From: a virus
Lineage: Duplodnaviria > Heunggongvirae > Uroviricota > Caudoviricetes
Strand: one strand, 5' to 3'
IMG/VR virus record: IMGVR_UViG_2645727743_000020
Span: 1-37,319 of that record
DNA length: 37,319 nucleotides
Part shown: positions 1-30,690 of the stretch, in pieces
Numbering within the stretch: position 1 is the first letter of the stretch
How the letters are laid out: every line of letters starts with the position of its first letter
The notes under the pieces: model-generated
The model's database searches: none
What the model saw: the letters and a program-made list of their open reading frames with translations, nothing else
What the model was told of the DNA's origin: nothing
Position numbers and translations under genes: made by a program

Positions 1-141
1 TTACTGCTTACACTGTAAGAACGCCGCAAACTCCGCTCCCCAGAAGCTCATCCGTATTTCACACAGCGAACCGTGCAACATCCAGATGATGAGGATTGCC
101 GTCACGCAGAACGTGATGGCCGTAAGCGATTTTTGCGACAT
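1..141 (-). CDS. hok: Hok/Gef-family type I toxin (46 aa small membrane peptide)
   Basis: ATG at 141, TAA at 1..3; AAGGAG SD about 9 nt upstream; product MSQKSLTAITFCVTAILIIWMLHGSLCEIRMSFWGAEFAAFLQCKQ has an N-terminal TM helix and the SLCEIR / E-x-AAF motifs conserved in Hok and Gef; too short for the ORF track (<60 aa). Confidence 0.6.
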   Translation of the reverse strand: MSQKSLTAITFCVTAILIIWMLHGSLCEIRMSFWGAEFAAFLQCKQ

Positions 142-331: not shown

Positions 332-592
332 TTAATTCTGAGGTAAAGGCAAGCTCATCTGATTGTTTCCCCTGTGTGAAGCTGGCAGCTCATGCCACGG
401 GATACCTTCTGAAGAGTGAACGCCGGAGGCGTGTTTCGATGTGAATTTATGGAAAGCTTCCAGTGTTGAGAAGCATACGCCGCATTCCAGATTGTTACAC
501 TGGTAATACTTTTGCCGTACGGTGTTTGAATCATTTTCCGGGCGACTGGTGCGGATACGGGCAGATGCGCCACAAAGCGGACAACGGAACAT
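332..592 (-). CDS. ogr: Ogr/Delta-family zinc-finger late-gene transcription activator
   Basis: MFRCPLCG...RTSR...YYQCNNLECGVCF matches the Cys4 zinc finger of P2 Ogr (MFHCPLC...RTSR...HQCQNVNC); GGGAGG SD 5 nt upstream of ATG 592; about 14 aa longer than P2 Ogr at the C-terminus. Confidence 0.85.
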   Translation of the reverse strand: MFRCPLCGASARIRTSRPENDSNTVRQKYYQCNNLECGVCFSTLEAFHKFTSKHASGVHSSEGIPWHELPASHRGNNQMSLPLPQN

Positions 593-854
593 AGCGACCT
601 CCCTTAACGTGGTGCAGTCACTATTCTAAGATTTACTTGCTCGGACTCCAACTGGCAGTTTGCGTAGCCAGAATGCAATCAAACCTGACAGTCCGCTTTG
701 AGTTGTGAGTTCAACGGGTCGATGTCAGAAATGTCATTTTGCGATTGAATTTCGCAATATTGAATTCTGTAAGAATGAAAAAGAATATATAGTGTTTATG
801 GCTGTGACGGTGGCGGTCTTTTGTGTGTTTCACTGAGCGCCTGGGGAAAGATGT

Positions 855-874
855 AAAAAACCGCCCAGCGGCGG
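855..874 (-). terminator. Rho-independent terminator downstream of the PRTase/SLOG operon
   Basis: GC stem CCGCC-N4-GGCGG (861..874) followed on the minus strand by a six-U tract (A-run 855..860), 30 nt past the stop of the 905..1462 gene. Confidence 0.5.
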
Positions 875-904
875 CTTTGACTACAGAGAAAAAAGATTTG
901 CACG

Positions 905-1462
905 TCAGATTAGGGCTATCTGCTGATTATTTAGCTTCTCCAATCTTTCAGACAGTTTTATCTTATCTTCAACTTTTTCCAGCGATGATGCTGACATAAA
1001 GCTAATCAGCTTATCAATATCTTTAGGTTCTTTGATAAGAACAAACTCCCTTGTCTTATTAATGAAAACAGCTGAGTTTTTCTTTCTTGATAGCAACTCA
1101 ATGACGTTGCTCAGTGTTCCCGGACTTTTTGTATCCCAAACCATAAGGCCACAGTCTGCTGTTTCTGCCATCTTTATATCTTTGGCTGTGTAGAAATCTC
1201 GAGTTCCGGGTCGGAAGTTTGATTTAACGAGTTTCACGGGCCATGCACCAAAATTGTTTCGTGGCTTGGCATCACTAGTGAACACAGTGGTTGCGCTATA
1301 ACCCAATTGTTTTAGTTCCAGCTGTACGGAAGAGTCAACGCCAGAGGCGTCACCGACGATAACATTAAAGTTCTTGTCAACAATCTTCTTTAAGCGCTCA
1401 ACGATAAGCGGGTCGAGCTTTTTAATGGTTATCGAGCCAGCAACGAAAACTGTCGTTGTCAT
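905..1462 (-). CDS. SLOG/DprA-like Rossmann-fold protein, second gene of the PRTase pair (ShosA-like candidate)
   Basis: ATG 1462 with GGAG SD, 2 nt after the PRTase stop; motifs VFVAGS...VIVGDASGVD and SPGTLSNVIELL resemble the glycine-rich loops of DprA/LOG (SLOG superfamily); family assignment is by motif only. Confidence 0.55.
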   Translation of the reverse strand: MTTTVFVAGSITIKKLDPLIVERLKKIVDKNFNVIVGDASGVDSSVQLELKQLGYSATTVFTSDAKPRNNFGAWPVKLVKSNFRPGTRDFYTAKDIKMAETADCGLMVWDTKSPGTLSNVIELLSRKKNSAVFINKTREFVLIKEPKDIDKLISFMSASSLEKVEDKIKLSERLEKLNNQQIALI

Positions 1463-1464
1463 GG

Positions 1465-2052
1465 TTATCTCCAGGTTAGTGCTGCTACATAAATTTTATT
1501 GATTTTATTATAACCGCGTAACGCTGTAACTGCAGCTTCCATGGATGCTCCTGTATGGAAGAGATCATCAACGATGAGGGCATTAAAAGGGCCATCCCCG
1601 ACAATTTGGTTTTGATAAGAAAAAGCGTCAGCAACAGCAGCTTCTTTCTCTTCTTTAGTGTTCAGATTTTTCAAAGACACGCCACCAGGTGCTTTGATTA
1701 ATAACTCATTGAAGCTAAACATGTTATTTCCCATTTTTGATGCCAGAGCGTCAGTAATTGCTGTCACGGGTTGAATTTTTCGAACATTTGAAGCTGCCAT
1801 TGGGATGATTAATTGTATGTTTTGAAAAAGAGGCACAGCATTAACTAATAGGCACTGGGCAAGCGCATCAACTTGGTCCATGTCATTTTGATATTTTAAC
1901 TGGTATACGGCTTCTCCAACCTCCGTGCGATCGTTTTGAAACATAGGCTTGCCATACTCGTTATCACCTAAATAAGTACTCTTAATCAAATGCTTATCCA
2001 TCGCGTAACCTAAATCCCAGTTACCCGTAATTGGCTTGATGTTTACTTTCAC
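1465..2052 (-). CDS. Type I phosphoribosyltransferase-domain protein (ShosT-like candidate)
   Basis: GTG start 2052 with AAGGAAA SD; PRPP-binding signature ALIVDDLFHTGASMEA near the C-terminus; inserted between tail gene D and ogr. Confidence 0.7.
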   Translation of the reverse strand: MKVNIKPITGNWDLGYAMDKHLIKSTYLGDNEYGKPMFQNDRTEVGEAVYQLKYQNDMDQVDALAQCLLVNAVPLFQNIQLIIPMAASNVRKIQPVTAITDALASKMGNNMFSFNELLIKAPGGVSLKNLNTKEEKEAAVADAFSYQNQIVGDGPFNALIVDDLFHTGASMEAAVTALRGYNKINKIYVAALTWR

Positions 2053-2285
2053 TACGCTTTCCTTGTTTGTTGTAATTGTTAATGAAGATACGCTAATTGG
2101 GAGTAATCCTAAAAGAAATCTTTAGTGAATTGTGAAGGCCGTTCGATCTTATAGGGGAATTGAGTATTTTCTATTGAAGTACAATAGTTAGTGTCCGATC
2201 TTGGCATAGAGCGAACTGTTAGATTAGGTTTGGTTCTGTGCCGTAAGCGTGTCAGCTCTGAGCTGGGCTAATGCATCTAAATTGC

Positions 2286-3395
2286 TCACTCTGTTTCTGC
2301 TATCCATTCCGGGATTTTTGCTTCAAGCTCAAGCCGCGTGGTAAAACCGCTGTTATCAATAGAGTGCTCCGCTTTTGCAATAATCCAGTCCTGATTATCA
2401 ATGTCGCTTTTGAAGCCTGTCACCGTGCCATGCATTTCGGGGTAGAGTTCTGCGCGGCCACGCGCCAGCGTGATGGAAAAAGATGCCGCTCCGCGCTGTA
2501 GCTGCTGCCACTTTGCAGCTGCTGCGCGCCTTGCTGCCTGCTCGTTCTGATAAGTCTTGCGTAACACAAACACATTGCCTTCCGCGCCTTCCATATAATC
2601 ACCTTCACGGCTGCTGCTTTTCTCCTTTTTGGGTTTTGGCGGTTTGCGGCGTTTCACGCTGACTTTTTTCTTTTTCCCGTAATTAAGATCAAGCCAGTAA
2701 GCGCGTACCCCCGTATACGCCTCGCGGTCAGCAATGCGGAACTGATGGCGATCGCCGCTGCTGCGTGTGATGGCGAACGATGGCAACGGCTGGCCCTGTG
2801 CGTTCACGCCACCGCCGGGCATGATGAATAACAGATTACCGCTTTTTACCGTGGTGATTGCGCCCAGCATTTCCGCCATGCGCGTAAGGAAGGACATGTC
2901 GCTTTCTTCAGTCTGGTCGGCGTGGTCGATTTCGATATCCATCAGCATTTCGCTGATTTGCGGTTTCAGACCATACCGATGAGCGATGGCGGATACCACA
3001 CGCTCAATGGTCACATCATGCCAGGACACCTCACGTTTAACGTTAAATTCATCCCGAAAATCTGCGCTTCTGGCTGAAACAGTCAGCCTGTCCGGCGGTC
3101 CTTCGTGAGCGATTTCATCAACAATGTAAGTGCCTTTTTCTGTCAGTGGTTCTCCTTTCCAGCCAATGAGAACCGTCAGGCGCGCGCCCCGTGGCGGTAG
3201 CTGCAACTGACCATCCGCATCATCCAGCGTGATGGTGAGCTGGTCCGCCTCAAATCCCCGGTTGTCGGTCAGTGACAGGCTCATCAGGCGCTCGGCCACG
3301 CCTGACAGCGTTTTACCCTCCGCGAGAATATCAAAATCCGGCATTTTCACGGGGTCTGTGCCCTGACTGAGCAATTGCATGGTGGTGTCGGTCAT
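2286..3395 (-). CDS. D: Tail protein D (late control gene D homolog)
   Basis: 369 aa from ATG 3395 with GGGAGGGAA SD; track ORF extends to 3527 but has no better start; length and position match P2 gpD. Confidence 0.85.
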   Translation of the reverse strand: MTDTTMQLLSQGTDPVKMPDFDILAEGKTLSGVAERLMSLSLTDNRGFEADQLTITLDDADGQLQLPPRGARLTVLIGWKGEPLTEKGTYIVDEIAHEGPPDRLTVSARSADFRDEFNVKREVSWHDVTIERVVSAIAHRYGLKPQISEMLMDIEIDHADQTEESDMSFLTRMAEMLGAITTVKSGNLLFIMPGGGVNAQGQPLPSFAITRSSGDRHQFRIADREAYTGVRAYWLDLNYGKKKKVSVKRRKPPKPKKEKSSSREGDYMEGAEGNVFVLRKTYQNEQAARRAAAAKWQQLQRGAASFSITLARGRAELYPEMHGTVTGFKSDIDNQDWIIAKAEHSIDNSGFTTRLELEAKIPEWIAETE

Positions 3396-3552
3396 CTGTT
3401 CCCTCCCTGTGCGGCATGGTCGCATGTGCGTGCGGAGGGGGTTACTGCTTTTTGTTGTCGCCGTGGCGGGAGAACGGCGCAGGGGTGAGATTACGCGCGT
3501 GGTGGGTGATGATTGTTGCCGAATCATTTAACGGATACAAGGGGCTGAAGCT

Positions 3553-25752: not shown

Positions 25753-27957
25753 TTACGTGTCGAGAGAAATTTGTGTGCGCAGTTGAATAGGATTCAGAAT
25801 TGTATATCGCTGGCGAATAACATTATATAAATCAAAGTCTTTTACCCTTACGCTTATTACCATCGCATATTGCATATCAGGGGCTGAAACTCCCTTAACA
25901 TGGCGCGAAGAATCTCGGGCATGATACCGTATATCAAAAACTGGATCGCTTAATAATGTATCAGCACTGAACTTTTTGCTTCTGTGCAAACAAGTTTCCC
26001 ACTTATGACCTTCACTCCTACACTCCCTTTCAGTCTTATACTGGCTTTTTTGACCAAAGAAATCATCTGTATCGGTATCGTCAAGGCCGAATCTTGGGCG
26101 GAAAGTTACCTGCATACCGGCCCTTGTATAGTTTACTGAATGTTCAGGATCTACTGGGGTTTGAATGCATAAAGTAGCGGTAAGCTCAAATGCTTCGTCA
26201 AAGGGAACATCAGGGAATGGGATCGGTGCCCTTAAATATTTATTTTTTGCTAATGAACCATAGTAAATTACTGTAGCAGTATCATTTGGACAATCGATTA
26301 AAACGTTAGGATCCTCACTAAACCGTCCCCAACCGATATGTTCACGCGAATATTTTCTTGATGTTTCAGCATGATGAACAAGCAACGCTTTCAATGCAAT
26401 GGTGTTCAATGGAGTTCCTGATAGAGCCGCAACTCCAGCGGCCGTTCTCAATGCTAATGGAGAGGCATAACTGGTTCCTTGAACTCCAACTATAGAACCA
26501 AGCAGAGGGTTGTAAGTGTAAAAAGGCTCGTCGTCGCTTCCACCAAAAATAACACCATCAGGTTTAACGAATCCGGGGCTTCTGCCTGGCCCAATACAGC
26601 TATATGGTGCCCGCCCCCATTTTTCACCGCTACGATCAGCAGCACCAATCGCTAGCGCGTTTACCATATCGGAAGGAGGTTGTATTCTCGCTGCATCACC
26701 GTCCTCATTGCCATCATTCCCAACAGCAACAGTAAGTAATATCCCATGCTTAGCACAGATTTGGTCTAAAACAGCAGTCCATACATGAACCTCATCATCA
26801 CCAATTGGAAGATGAGGACCAATACTTAGATTAGCGAACTTATAGTCACCACTATCAAGAACGGACTGTATTTTCTTAAGGACATCAAATAAATCCCAAT
26901 TGCCATTGTCACCTGATGTCGGTGAAAGAACTCTATAATGATCTACATTCATAAACGGTCTTTTAAAAGAAGGTGCATTTTCCTCGACACGTCCGAATAA
27001 GAAAGTGGATGTCACTTCATTACCGTGCTGCAATAATAATCCGCTTGTTTCTTTGGTGTCTGGATACACGTATTCCGTAACCCAATTACTCAAGTCAGCT
27101 GTCCCCAAGCCACCATCAAAAATGGCAATACGTTCGGATTCAAGAACAGCTTTAGAATTAGGGAGCTCTGGTGTAACTATATTAGATAACTTTCTGACAA
27201 TGTTCGGCTGAGTACACCTGAGAGACGGCATCGGCCGCACAACGCGGATTAATGAAAAATCGAGTGTTTTTTTCATATCTTCAGGTCGCGCGTGTGCAAC
27301 GATGAAAGTCAGCCCACCAACTTGGATTCTACTTTTGTAATCAACAGAGACATCATATTGTGCCGCATAGCTAATATAGGCTTTAACGATATCATCGTCT
27401 TCAACCCCAGCATGAAGAACCACTTCAAATTTTATCAAATCACTTTTCGCATGCTCAAAATTGCGTGCTCTCTCTTTTCCTTCAAAAAAGCTAACACTTT
27501 CAATTTCGATCAAATCCTTTTGTACGCCCTTCGGAGCTGTAGGGGAATTTAAAATTTCCTTAAATCTTATAACGGCATCATCATCACCGCTAACAAACAG
27601 TTGCGCCGTTACTAAGTCCTTATTCTGATCGCACTGACGTGCCGCTTTCCGTGGGCGAATGATTACCTGACGGCTACCGACATCCCGTAAACCTGTCGCT
27701 CTAAGCAATCCTTCCGGAAAGTAGCTTTTACCCAAAAACGCTGGGTGTAAAGTTAAATTGAATACACTCTCCCCCCTTGGCTTAGCCGCATCATCCAAAC
27801 TGCGAAAGCGTGAGAGTAAAGTATCAATCTCTGGGTTTAAATGCTCCCTTACTTCTTCAAGAGTATAGGGATAGCGCTTACCATCCCTTCCTTTAGGCAA
27901 AGGTTCCTTTTTTGTCAGAACATGACCGTTACCTAAAAGTAAGTTCCTTTCCATCAT
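25753..27957 (-). CDS. S8-family subtilisin-like serine protease with a roughly 270-aa N-terminal domain of unknown function (IetS-like candidate)
   Basis: Catalytic triad motifs in order: IAIFDGG (Asp), HGNEVTS (His), GTSYASPLA (Ser, the GTS-x-A-x-P signature); 734 aa; start overlaps the ATPase stop by 4 nt. Confidence 0.85.
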   Translation of the reverse strand: MMERNLLLGNGHVLTKKEPLPKGRDGKRYPYTLEEVREHLNPEIDTLLSRFRSLDDAAKPRGESVFNLTLHPAFLGKSYFPEGLLRATGLRDVGSRQVIIRPRKAARQCDQNKDLVTAQLFVSGDDDAVIRFKEILNSPTAPKGVQKDLIEIESVSFFEGKERARNFEHAKSDLIKFEVVLHAGVEDDDIVKAYISYAAQYDVSVDYKSRIQVGGLTFIVAHARPEDMKKTLDFSLIRVVRPMPSLRCTQPNIVRKLSNIVTPELPNSKAVLESERIAIFDGGLGTADLSNWVTEYVYPDTKETSGLLLQHGNEVTSTFLFGRVEENAPSFKRPFMNVDHYRVLSPTSGDNGNWDLFDVLKKIQSVLDSGDYKFANLSIGPHLPIGDDEVHVWTAVLDQICAKHGILLTVAVGNDGNEDGDAARIQPPSDMVNALAIGAADRSGEKWGRAPYSCIGPGRSPGFVKPDGVIFGGSDDEPFYTYNPLLGSIVGVQGTSYASPLALRTAAGVAALSGTPLNTIALKALLVHHAETSRKYSREHIGWGRFSEDPNVLIDCPNDTATVIYYGSLAKNKYLRAPIPFPDVPFDEAFELTATLCIQTPVDPEHSVNYTRAGMQVTFRPRFGLDDTDTDDFFGQKSQYKTERECRSEGHKWETCLHRSKKFSADTLLSDPVFDIRYHARDSSRHVKGVSAPDMQYAMVISVRVKDFDLYNVIRQRYTILNPIQLRTQISLDT

Positions 27958-29036
27958 TTAATCCCCCACTTTTGTAATTTATTCGCGATTGTTGGATGTG
28001 AAACACCAACTAATTCAGCTATCTTCCTATTTGAAAAACCGTCAAAATGATATTTAATTATATTGAGATCATTATCGCTAAACTCATCCAATGAAACCCT
28101 CTCCGTAATTACGGCTTCTATTAATGAGCTTTCAAATGGAATATTTCTAAGTACCTCATTCTTTTTGGAGAAATTCAAAATACGGTTAATGATGGCAAAG
28201 GACATGCCATCTAATAATGGTGCAAGTTTTTTAGATAGTTCAGGTTCAATATTATGATTGACTAAATATCTATCTATCAGTTCTACTGATGGCATATTAA
28301 ATTTAAGGATGTGCTCAAATCGACGCCAAACAGCCGGATCTAAGATATCAGGGTGATTAGTCGCAGCAACAAGAAGCGAGGTCGCTGGCCACTCATCTAT
28401 GGTCTGTAGGAGTACAGTAACTAAACGTTTTAATTCTCCAACGTCCCTGTCATCATCACGTCTTTTTGCAACAGCATCAAATTCATCAAGCAAAAGGACA
28501 CATGGTTTCTCTTTGGCATAATCCATAACGGATTTAATATTATTACCTGTTTTTCCCAAAAGAGAACTCATTACAGATGAGAGATCCAATGTTAAAAGAG
28601 GTAAATTTAACTTTGCAGCAAGCCAATGTGCGGACATTGTTTTGCCTACGCCTGGCGGGCCAGAAAGTAAAACCGTCTTCACAGGTTCAAGACCAGCTTT
28701 GAACAAAGAAACCGCATTCTCTCTTTCGTTAACAATTGACTCCAGCTTCTTTGAGATATCCGTATTCCATACAGGTTCTTCAACAATTGCGTTGACAGAT
28801 GTTTCCTGCAAAAGGTTTCGTCTGGAGTCTCCATCCACAGGCATAGGAGCCTTACTAGATGCCCCACGTAATACTGTTCCCTCAGCAACTAACGAAGCCA
28901 GCTTAGAAGCTAAAGCCTCATCATTTTTACGGATGTTGTTAATCATCTTTCTGCATAGGAGTGTAAATGCATTTGCGTTGCCTTTGATGCCTTGCTCGAT
29001 GAGTTTGAAAAGTTCATCCTCCCTCACGTTTACCAT
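27954..29036 (-). CDS. AAA+ ATPase with C-terminal LuxR/sigma-70 region-4-like HTH (IetA-like candidate)
   Basis: Walker A GPPGVGKT, Walker B VLLLDEFD, sensor/arginine-finger ATNHPDILDPAVWRRF; C-terminal NRKIAELVGVSHPTIANKLQKWGI; ATG 29036 with GGGGG SD. Confidence 0.85.
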   Translation of the reverse strand: MVNVREDELFKLIEQGIKGNANAFTLLCRKMINNIRKNDEALASKLASLVAEGTVLRGASSKAPMPVDGDSRRNLLQETSVNAIVEEPVWNTDISKKLESIVNERENAVSLFKAGLEPVKTVLLSGPPGVGKTMSAHWLAAKLNLPLLTLDLSSVMSSLLGKTGNNIKSVMDYAKEKPCVLLLDEFDAVAKRRDDDRDVGELKRLVTVLLQTIDEWPATSLLVAATNHPDILDPAVWRRFEHILKFNMPSVELIDRYLVNHNIEPELSKKLAPLLDGMSFAIINRILNFSKKNEVLRNIPFESSLIEAVITERVSLDEFSDNDLNIIKYHFDGFSNRKIAELVGVSHPTIANKLQKWGIK

Positions 29037-29730: not shown

Positions 29731-30690
29731 TTACTCCTTGTCCATTGCGTACAGCCCATTAACCAGAGCAAACTGTGGCACCCCGTCCGCGATGAAAGTC
29801 GCATTAACTCCGCAGGCTTCGCGGATAGCGGGTGCCACAATCTCCGCCCCTCCACCGACAACCATCACCCGCCCGTAACCCGAAAAAACCGCCAGCGCGC
29901 GGATCACGCGTTGTTTCAGTGTTTCTTCCTTTTCACGAATAACCGCCATCAGGCTGGCGTAATGCGCGTCATTGTGGATGTGCTGGCGCAGCCAGGCTTC
30001 ATCATGGCGATGTTCGATAATGGTATTGGCGATGTGGTGACTGGTGCGCATACCGTTAGTGGCCATCACCGACAGTACGGCATCGGCCATCAGAGAAACG
30101 CCTACGTGTGGATCGCAAAACACCTGGCTGATACCTGCCAGTTGCCCCTGAACCTTTGCCACATCCAGCGTGGTTCCGCCCAAATCCACAATCAGCAGGG
30201 ATTCAAACGGACTCATGTCAGCCAGTGCCTTAAAGCCAGCCGGAATGGATTCAGGCATAACCCGCACGTTACGGATAGTGAATGCCTCACCGTTCTGGTA
30301 CTCCACCGGGCGCATAACGTTTGCTTTTTTGCGGTTGATGTTGGCCATGTCCGGCTGGGCGTTAGTGTCGAAATATTCGCTCAGTGGCAGGGTGACAACC
30401 ACATCCACTTCCTGTGGCGTGATGCCTGATTTGACCAGCGCGTGATGAATGGCAATGACATTCACATCGCTGTACTGGTATTGCGTGTCGGTCGTCTGGA
30501 CAAAGCGATCGCTGACCGGATCAAAACCATAGCGCACGCCATCAAGCATGTAGTTCGCAGGCTGCGAGCCACCGAACGGTGCAGACCATTCCGACTTGAA
30601 GCTGTTCGGGCTGATGGCGTTGCGGCGTTCGCCGTTTTCAGTCCATGCCAGCTTGATGTTGGTGGAGCCGTCGTCGATACAAATTTTCAT
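29731..30690 (-). CDS. parM: ParM/StbA-family actin-like segregation ATPase
   Basis: 319 aa; IDDGSTNIKL, ISPNSF, YSDVNV, HHAL, KANVMRPVE, VMPESIPAG, LLIVDLGGTTLD, VVGGGAE, LVNGLY all align with R1 ParM (recalled from memory). Confidence 0.9.
   Translation of the reverse strand: MKICIDDGSTNIKLAWTENGERRNAISPNSFKSEWSAPFGGSQPANYMLDGVRYGFDPVSDRFVQTTDTQYQYSDVNVIAIHHALVKSGITPQEVDVVVTLPLSEYFDTNAQPDMANINRKKANVMRPVEYQNGEAFTIRNVRVMPESIPAGFKALADMSPFESLLIVDLGGTTLDVAKVQGQLAGISQVFCDPHVGVSLMADAVLSVMATNGMRTSHHIANTIIEHRHDEAWLRQHIHNDAHYASLMAVIREKEETLKQRVIRALAVFSGYGRVMVVGGGAEIVAPAIREACGVNATFIADGVPQFALVNGLYAMDKE

Follow-up and report, generated by a model that had tools for sequence, protein, structure and literature searches.

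A compact phosphoribosyltransferase–SLOG gene pair between D and ogr of a P88-like prophage, remotely related to ShosTA and PsyrTA

The 37,319-nucleotide stretch of DNA analysed here, i.e. the complete IMG/VR virus record IMGVR_UViG_2645727743_000020 (Caudoviricetes; referred to below as the window), carries between its genes D and ogr a cassette of two genes, which encode a ComF-like phosphoribosyltransferase (PRTase) of 195 aa and a SLOG-fold protein of 185 aa. The two genes form a compact unit and the folds of their products are recognizable, the phosphoribosyl pyrophosphate (PRPP) motif is intact, the pairing is conserved, both products are remotely homologous to the components of the ShosTA and PsyrTA systems, and the context is that of mobile elements and defence islands. 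The cassette is probably a toxin/neutraliser module of the ShosTA/PsyrTA kind that acts in abortive infection or superinfection exclusion, in which toxicity, its neutralisation by the partner, the trigger and an effect against phages are inferred. A preliminary description of the window, made from the sequence alone, had already pointed to a PRTase/SLOG cassette at this position, and its open reading frames (ORFs), motifs, protein sizes and tight coupling proved to be as described there.

The two genes and the folds of their products

Both ORFs represent real genes and not chance ORFs, because they belong to large families of full-length homologues of constant size (386 and 352 clusters at E<=1e-3) and yield confident AlphaFold models (pLDDT 91.9 and 94.3). 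The GTG start of the PRTase gene agrees with the N-termini of the homologues (MKVNIK/MNVNIK). The intergenic distance is 2 nt (PRTase stop TAA at 1467-1465, SLOG start ATG at 1462-1460) and, as the ribosome-binding site (RBS) of the SLOG gene, GGAG at 1472-1469, lies within the 3' end of the PRTase gene, the two genes can be considered translationally coupled. The terminator that the preliminary description had attributed to the cassette itself is present past the SLOG stop, in the form of a GC-rich hairpin with a T-run at ~878-855 on the minus strand (Table 1).

In the case of the first gene product, the type I PRTase fold is evident from a Rossmann-like core combined with a PRPP loop of the form hydrophobic-DD-hydrophobic-x-TG-x-S/T. 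The loop is intact (VDDLFHTGAS, residues 161-170; VDDLFHTGASM, 161-171), no variation being seen in the DD, G and S of the loop across 34 homologues, and the family as a whole ranges from 191 to 197 aa in length. In searches with hidden Markov models (HMMs) the protein itself was matched by NCBIfam comF (1e-4), Pfam Pribosyltran (0.017) and the PADLOC models PsyrT (1e-7) and ShosT (0.0019). The PsyrT match is the best in PADLOC and spans positions 529-681 of the 689 in that profile, i.e. its C-terminal PRTase part. When the aligned family was compared with PADLOC, PsyrT matched 34/34 members (best 2.6e-10) and ShosT 33/34 (best 1.1e-9). Judged by HMM score, the PRTase is no further from PsyrT than from ShosT. 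Pfam yielded neither a HAD/Hydrolase nor a helicase domain in the protein. Its best structural match by far is ComFC; the score against TIGR00201 comF nevertheless amounts to 22 bits, below the family cut-off of 233 bits, and the protein has one Cys and lacks the four-Cys zinc finger of ComF. The place of the ComFC zinc finger is taken by a domain of three beta strands without Cys pairs (residues ~14-42), which has invariant residues of its own (G10, W12, G15, K20, R42 and G46). That the protein might group with the housekeeping purine/pyrimidine salvage enzymes, as the preliminary description had considered, was rejected: no NCBIfam equivalog was reached, ComFC is the best fold and the setting is mobile.

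The second gene product itself is matched by no Pfam, NCBIfam or PADLOC model. It does have the hallmarks of the SLOG superfamily, namely a Rossmannoid fold in which strand 2 is followed by a Gly-rich nucleotide loop and strand 5 by a loop of the SxGT type, the corresponding motifs being GDASGVD (residues 37-43) and SPGTL (113-117). The SLOG/DprA fold surmised earlier is borne out by the AlphaFold model, the structural matches of which include (with the listed figures) YpsA (14.2), TM1055 (13.7), a Moco-carrier protein (13.3), DprA (13.1), the ShosA crystal structure (12.9), LOG (11.9) and the SLOG domain of ThsA (10.8); the viral structural neighbours are DprA-like, YspA/cpYpsA and DUF2493 proteins. 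Within the family (n=35) weak HMM matches appear to DNA_processg_A (Pfam, 12 members, at about 1e-3), PsyrA (11 members, best 6.8e-4) and ShosA (7 members, best 1.3e-3), PsyrA and ShosA being the two commonest PADLOC families among them.

A profile search of 1.84 billion representatives recovered 2,139 SLOG clusters (50% identity) at E<=1e-3. Among the best 150 representatives the residues G37-D38-A39-x-G41-x-D43-xxx-Q47, R68-N69-N70-x-G72-x-W74, K94-D95-xx-M98 and W109-D110-xx-S113-x-G115-T116-xx-N119 are near-invariant, giving the family signatures GDAxGxDxxxQ, RNNxGxW, KDxxM and WDxxSxGTxxN. Together these residues make up a polar pocket of the kind that binds ligands or catalyses reactions. 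A register-matched alignment to ShosA did not show the RNN, KD and WD motifs, and the protein belongs to a distinct SLOG clade. It is basic (pI 9.45; family median 9.3), in the AlphaFold model it starts directly at strand 1 with no SAM domain ahead, and its C-terminal end is a helical hairpin (~147-184) of low conservation. Orphan SLOG homologues of 149 and 133 aa (L041:5962-6411 and L042:2080-2481), which have neither the C-terminal helices nor a PRTase gene upstream, occur on AT-rich viral contigs, one of them of 180 kb; these could be anti-defence mimics of the neutraliser, or represent another use of the domain.

Table 1. Features of the insert (~630-2275) and of its flanks, in window coordinates
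Feature	Position	Strand	Description
gene 1, PRTase	1465..2052	minus	195 aa, GTG start; ComF-like phosphoribosyltransferase, putative toxin/effector
gene 2, SLOG	905..1462	minus	185 aa, ATG start; SLOG-fold, putative neutraliser/sensor
5' leader	2053..2135	minus	RBS AAGGA at 2064-2060; presumed promoter region; common to plasmid copy NZ_CP021538
intrinsic terminator AAAGCCGCCGCTGGGCGGTTTTTT	855..878	minus	27 nt past SLOG stop; terminator scan and sequence; inside plasmid-shared segment
foreign insert	~630..2275		D stop to ogr RBS; ~1,645 bp, 41% GC; TTAGA at both junctions
ogr (Ogr/Delta zinc-finger late activator)	332..592	minus	downstream flank; Pfam Ogr_Delta 5e-14, RefSeq annotation
gene D (tail/baseplate hub)	2286..3527	minus	upstream flank; Pfam Phage_GPD 1.8e-16

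Conserved pairing and mobile setting

The PRTase gene is found directly upstream of the SLOG gene and on the same strand in 35 of the 37 assessable loci (SLOG identities 44-100%), and the paired loci span Enterobacterales, Aeromonas, Neisseria, Comamonas, Bdellovibrionales and viral contigs; 26 loci in IMG/VR have either the pair or a gene related to the SLOG gene. In one protein of 404 aa (P0374) the two are naturally fused in the order PRTase–SLOG (Pribosyltran 1.8e-6). Other members of the SLOG family are fused to Abi_alpha (2e-14), NADAR (2e-23, P0277), DUF4326 or HTH_37 and, more weakly (4e-5, below the cut-off), to a HEPN_AbiU2-like region; the fusions are represented by P0374, P0277, P0294, P0365, P0361, P0244 and P0243. 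NADAR has been described for the reversal of base ADP-ribosylation. The SLOG clade behaves as a movable building block of conflict systems. A truncated SLOG gene of E. coli (P0049) was examined for loss of the paired toxin; the sheath and D genes of this assembly are fragmented too, and because this suggests sequencing errors the case says little about the sequence 'antitoxin lost, toxin lost'.

The genes that surround the pair in other genomes are in part those of conflict systems as well. In Proteus the neighbours are an AAA_15+HNH and an OLD-TOPRIM+UvrD gene pair (Septu-like and Gabija-like, respectively), in Brenneria KwaAB and CcdAB, and in a metagenome-assembled genome of the Bdellovibrionales SIR2_2+DUF87 (SIR2-HerA), while the loci of Citrobacter and Serratia are situated at prophage ends.

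The prophage in the window is P88-like (Xuanwuvirus, Peduoviridae) and not P2 proper: its D protein is 96-99% identical to that of P88, P88_4B11, PhiR44_2, Chuche and Shae_phiSM, and its gene D is divergent from the tail-sheath operon, in which P2 differs. BLAST homology to four P88-like (Xuanwuvirus) phages ends at window position 2276 and returns at 630, from which an insert size of 1,645 bp is derived. The preliminary description had compared the junction with that of P2 and put the insert at 1.7 kb; the insert is real, whereas the appropriate reference is P88-like, with a distance between the D stop and the ogr start of 42 bp in P88_4B11 and PhiR44_2 (both genes being annotated there), as against an 81-bp gap in P2, which contains the ogr promoter. 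The insert has a GC content of 41% versus 51.5% for the window (locally a fall from ~53% to 38-44%), and TTAGA is present on either side of it (2280-2276 and 629-625). The cassette is missing from P88, P88_4B11, PhiR44_2 and Shae_phiSM, and a megablast DNA search of the phage database returned no deposited phage that carries it. Among 5,426 complete E. coli genomes, only 7 have the identical insert at the identical site, as does one IMG/VR contig. Plasmid NZ_CP021538 harbours an 83%-identical copy, which adjoins a type II restriction-modification system and has RelBE nearby. Since this copy matches window positions 839-2135 only, i.e. the leader, the two genes and the terminator, that stretch can be regarded as the mobile unit, in which the leader travels with the genes. 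The foreign composition, the own terminator, the location in a variable slot and the absence from sister phages are those of a moron, or hotspot cargo.

The variability of the slot itself became apparent with a 626-bp probe (the 3' end of D plus ogr), which matches 1,202 E. coli genomes and is uninterrupted in only 720. All of eight interrupted examples (L043-L050) diverge at the D stop or within ~25 bp of it, and the sampled inserts carry seven kinds of cargo other than PRTase–SLOG, namely a restriction enzyme with a GmrSD domain, a protein with DUF2971 (PADLOC candidate PDC-S31, 5.6e-27), a YecA/SEC-C protein (in two genomes) and four unrelated hypothetical proteins of 221, 340, 384 and 487 aa. 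No description of a D–ogr hotspot was found in the literature searched.

Several further features of the insert and the prophage were noted. With the insert, a terminator and ~230 bp of foreign DNA (593-904) come to lie immediately before ogr, which in sister phages follows 42 bp past D, and a plus-strand terminator-like hairpin is located at 800-818. No third component or non-coding RNA (ncRNA) was found in the insert flanks (Rfam over 300-2600; the small ORFs at 705-836 were outside the scope). Gene D is an unbroken ORF of 413 codons (2286-3527) in the window and ~369 aa in phage records, while in RefSeq the identical E. coli prophages (L001:7687-8487) have an 801-nt 'VgrG/Pvc8 family' coding sequence plus a pseudo-fragment; this length mismatch looks like an inconsistency of annotation or start site and not like a disruption. 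The classical cos-adjacent hotspot of P2-type phages contains, in the same prophage, an ietAS pair at 25753-29036(-), in which IetS is a Peptidase_S8 protein of 734 aa (PADLOC 6.6e-41) and IetA an AAA ATPase of 360 aa (PADLOC 3.6e-89), adjoined by a StbA/ParM segregation gene (ietAS and this gene together covering 25753-29036(-) and 29731-30690(-)); given ietAS, the prophage carries a known defence system besides the PRTase–SLOG cassette. Downstream of ogr, where the prophage ends beside ihfA, there is a Hok/Gef toxin gene (1-141(-), PF01848 4e-7), the position of which is kept in P88-like phages.

Relation to described PRTase and SLOG systems

There are two described defence toxin–antitoxin (TA) systems in which a PRTase-domain toxin is combined with a DprA-homologous antitoxin, namely ShosTA and PsyrTA (RqlHI) (10.1101/2022.05.11.491447). 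Such toxins with their DprA-like antitoxins protect against phage, and deletions of the antitoxin were untransformable (10.1101/2022.05.11.491447). The window pair resembles ShosTA, which is known from E. coli APEC O1 (Millman et al. 2022) and is the 'DprA + PRTase' system in Rousset et al. 2022, in being a two-gene operon for a PRTase and a SLOG/DprA-fold protein, in being carried by a P2-family prophage, in having kept the DD of the PRPP loop, and in the weak ShosT and ShosA HMM matches found across both window families. It differs in architecture. ShosT, of 424 aa, has an N-terminal HAD/pyrophosphatase domain in addition to the PRTase domain (PMC11961720; Rousset Table S3), which the PRTase of the window does not have, and ShosA, of ~330 aa, consists of an N-terminal SAM domain and a nine-stranded DprA core (PMC11961720) that is larger than that of the SLOG protein described here. 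In addition, ShosTA is located in the cos-adjacent hotspot and not at D–ogr, and the conserved RNN, KD and WD motifs of the SLOG partner are different. Of the behaviour that defines ShosTA, i.e. PRPP-dependent toxicity of the PRTase, neutralisation by the SLOG protein and protection against T7 and lambda, the sequence bears on the PRPP loop only, the DD of which is present in the window pair.

With PsyrTA/RqlHI the pair shares the ComF-like PRTase domain, which is the toxic determinant of PsyrT/RqlH, and the downstream position of the gene for a DprA-homologous protein, the putative protector in the window pair. RqlH is a fusion of a RecQ helicase and a PRTase (PMC4670107), and its RecQ-like helicase, which accounts for ~500 of the ~690 aa of PsyrT/RqlH, is missing from the window PRTase; the SLOG protein itself, moreover, does not match the PsyrA model. 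Membership of either system was rejected on the grounds of a different domain architecture and insufficient HMM scores. Because it is without both accessory domains and its hhalign comparisons (see below) are non-significant, the pair is best described as a remote minimal relative of ShosTA and PsyrTA. Of the ShosTA-like candidate in the preliminary description, the relationship holds at the level of the families, for PRTase (PsyrT and ShosT) as well as for SLOG (PsyrA 11/35, ShosA 7/35), and it breaks down on the missing HAD/pyrophosphatase and SAM domains; the accompanying caveat, that this may be a minimal or distinct variant, was the accurate part.

PRTases also act as defence effectors in type III retrons, in Ophion (OpnC) and in a validated system of DefensePredictor, where the PRTase is paired with a NADAR protein (PMC13092281). 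The window pair has no reverse transcriptase (RT) or ncRNA, radical SAM or PHP partner, and the PRTase of DefensePredictor is a different, retron-III-like protein of 343 aa; NADAR is the partner there, whereas it is fused to the SLOG family here. A retron-type PRTase effector was rejected: the insert contains no RT ORF, Rfam gave no match in 300-2600, and the PADLOC model PRTase_III-A is matched by just 2/34 family members (at 0.023).

The short PRTase–SLOG family already appears, although uncharacterised, in the catalogue of Rousset et al. 2022 under system #98 (Table S5B, PMC9122126), a row without a note that records 33 occurrences in the cos-adjacent old/tin hotspot of P2. It concerns the same family with the same protein sizes (185 + 193 aa; 63% identity for SLOG and 57% for the PRTase) and likewise a cargo of P2-like prophages, the difference being the hotspot, i.e. 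old/tin versus D–ogr. Among the tested constructs of Table S2, as far as this table was covered, the sole DprA+PRTase row found is pFR105, which represents the HAD-PRTase + DprA of avian pathogenic E. coli (APEC) O1, i.e. ShosTA. The supplements of DefensePredictor contain neither WP_052931257 nor WP_032083446. The family is, in short, a compact variant of the known PRTase/SLOG defence theme.

Proposed function and alternative explanations

In the proposed scheme, a self-contained two-gene moron, with its leader, coupling and terminator, was brought by recombination into the variable slot between D and ogr in a P88-like prophage. The PRTase would bind PRPP and move the phosphoribosyl moiety onto a nucleobase target, for which the pool of free purines (reported for ShosT) and the bases of DNA (proposed for RqlH) are candidates, and its action would lead to nucleotide-pool or genotoxic stress. 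The SLOG protein, made from the same mRNA, would keep the PRTase harmless in the uninfected lysogen, either by reversing or consuming the product in its polar pocket or, like ShosA, by binding single-stranded DNA (ssDNA) and repair factors. Infection by another phage might then remove or overload the SLOG protein, upon which the PRTase would halt the infected cell. In favour of the scheme are the resemblance of both partners to ShosTA and PsyrTA, the conserved operon, the mobile or defence-related setting, the varied cargo of the D–ogr slot in sister prophages, the fusions of the SLOG family to abortive-infection effectors and the listing as system #98, together with the requirement of the PRPP-binding DD for ShosT toxicity (PMC11961720, PMC12961424) and of the PRTase domain for that of RqlH (PMC4670107). 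ShosA is known to bind ssDNA and RecA and not to bind ShosT (PMC11961720, PMC12961424). The basic charge of the SLOG protein fits a ShosA-like binding of DNA, its polar pocket together with the NADAR and DUF4326 fusions fits an enzymatic reversal of a phosphoribosyl adduct, and a role as sensor would be in line with the fusions of its family to Abi_alpha and to HEPN-like effectors.

A number of observations weigh against this assignment. RqlH's PRTase domain is needed but not sufficient for genotoxicity (PMC4670107) and, because that domain alone was non-toxic, a PRTase on its own is possibly no toxin. Neutralisation by ShosA proceeds via ssDNA and RecA by means of features that are not evident in the window protein, e.g. 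the SAM domain (PMC11961720, PMC12961424), and the natural PRTase–SLOG fusions sit awkwardly with the model of a labile antitoxin. The hhalign alignments to ShosA and ShosT of APEC O1 (sequences from Rousset Table S5B) are in register, ShosA 135-270 aligning with SLOG residues 7-131, at 19-23% identity, yet they are not significant (E 0.012-0.043), single-sequence templates being of limited sensitivity. The HMM matches of the PRTase itself (Pribosyltran, ShosT) have scores far below any system-calling threshold, and the SLOG protein itself matches neither ShosA nor DNA_processg_A and has no PADLOC match at all. Furthermore, a sigma-70 consensus scan of 2053-2285 on the minus strand found no promoter, one Neisseria locus sits among housekeeping genes, and the literature searched contained no experimental test of a short PRTase–SLOG pair.

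As to the chemistry, the pair might be a PRPP-based analogue of DarTG, in which the PRTase would phosphoribosylate a DNA base or a nucleotide and the SLOG protein, as a LOG-like N-glycosidase and not an ssDNA/RecA adaptor, would remove the adduct. This version, to which we assign a low probability, is compatible with the composition of the pocket (D38, D43, Q47, R68-N69-N70, W74, K94-D95, W109-D110, S113, T116 and N119), with the NADAR and DUF4326 fusions, with the existence of a PRTase+NADAR defence system (PMC13092281) and with the proposal that the PRTase of RqlH alters a nucleotide that RqlI resolves (PMC4670107).

The same pocket, near-invariant over 150 cluster representatives, can also be read in terms of nucleotide signalling. 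According to this model of Burroughs and Aravind, the PRTase would make an unusual nucleotide upon infection, to be sensed by the SLOG protein, which would act downstream through oligomerisation via its C-terminal helices or through a host factor. The N-terminal fusion of SLOG family members to Abi_alpha and HEPN_AbiU2-like effectors has the layout of a sensor coupled to an effector, and SLOG proteins have been called signal sensors or generators, a branch of the YpsA family forming a strong gene pair with a PRTase (Brzozowski et al. 2019, PMC6459960, citing Burroughs et al. 2015). That branch, which shares the GxD motif of the nucleotide loop with the window protein and may be the window family, was published as a purely computational note without assigned function; the window SLOG protein has no Pfam YpsA match. 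The two-gene version is moreover devoid of a recognisable effector domain, and in ShosTA and RqlHI the toxic part is the PRTase and the SLOG protein is the protector (PMC11961720, PMC4670107), so that we consider signalling an unlikely explanation.

That the cassette is exclusively an addiction module, i.e. a TA pair by which a prophage or plasmid is kept through post-segregational killing and that has no anti-phage role, would predict the same architecture and the same location on mobile elements as the toxin/neutraliser defence module that we favour. Stabilisation genes are indeed at hand, as the prophage has hok/gef and StbA/ParM and the plasmid copy is near RelBE. Nevertheless, the pair recurs beside dedicated anti-phage systems and in slots with GmrSD and PDC-S31 cargo, and both characterised relatives protect against phages (PMC9122126, 10.1101/2022.05.11.491447), which renders addiction as the sole function rather improbable.

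Very improbable, finally, is an ssDNA-handling pair derived from ComFC and DprA, which would aid the processing or recombination of phage or plasmid ssDNA, or block the uptake of foreign ssDNA, without any killing: the structural matches (ComFC as the best for the PRTase, DprA among the best for the SLOG protein), the basic SLOG protein and the action of ComFC and DprA on incoming ssDNA in transformation (PMC9005727) agree with it, whereas the replacement of the ComFC zinc finger by a Cys-free beta domain in a protein with one Cys, the 22 bits against a comF cut-off of 233, the position outside a competence locus, and the mobile, low-GC, patchy occurrence (7/5,426 E. coli genomes) with defence-island neighbours fit accessory conflict genes and not core phage functions.

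If the toxin/neutraliser module is active, it would be a minimal form of the principle of a PRTase toxin with a SLOG protector, without the pyrophosphatase, helicase and SAM accessories of ShosTA and PsyrTA. A pair of 195 + 185 aa would then reveal the activities that suffice and offer a tractable means of finding the acceptor substrate of defence PRTases, and it could decide between an enzyme, a DNA binder and a sensor as the nature of the SLOG partner. The SLOG family is large, and defence-annotation tools that use the 2023 PADLOC models would miss the PRTase–SLOG pair. The D–ogr junction of P88-like prophages, in turn, constitutes a second cargo slot besides the P2-like cos-adjacent hotspot, and thereby a new site for anti-phage gene hunting.

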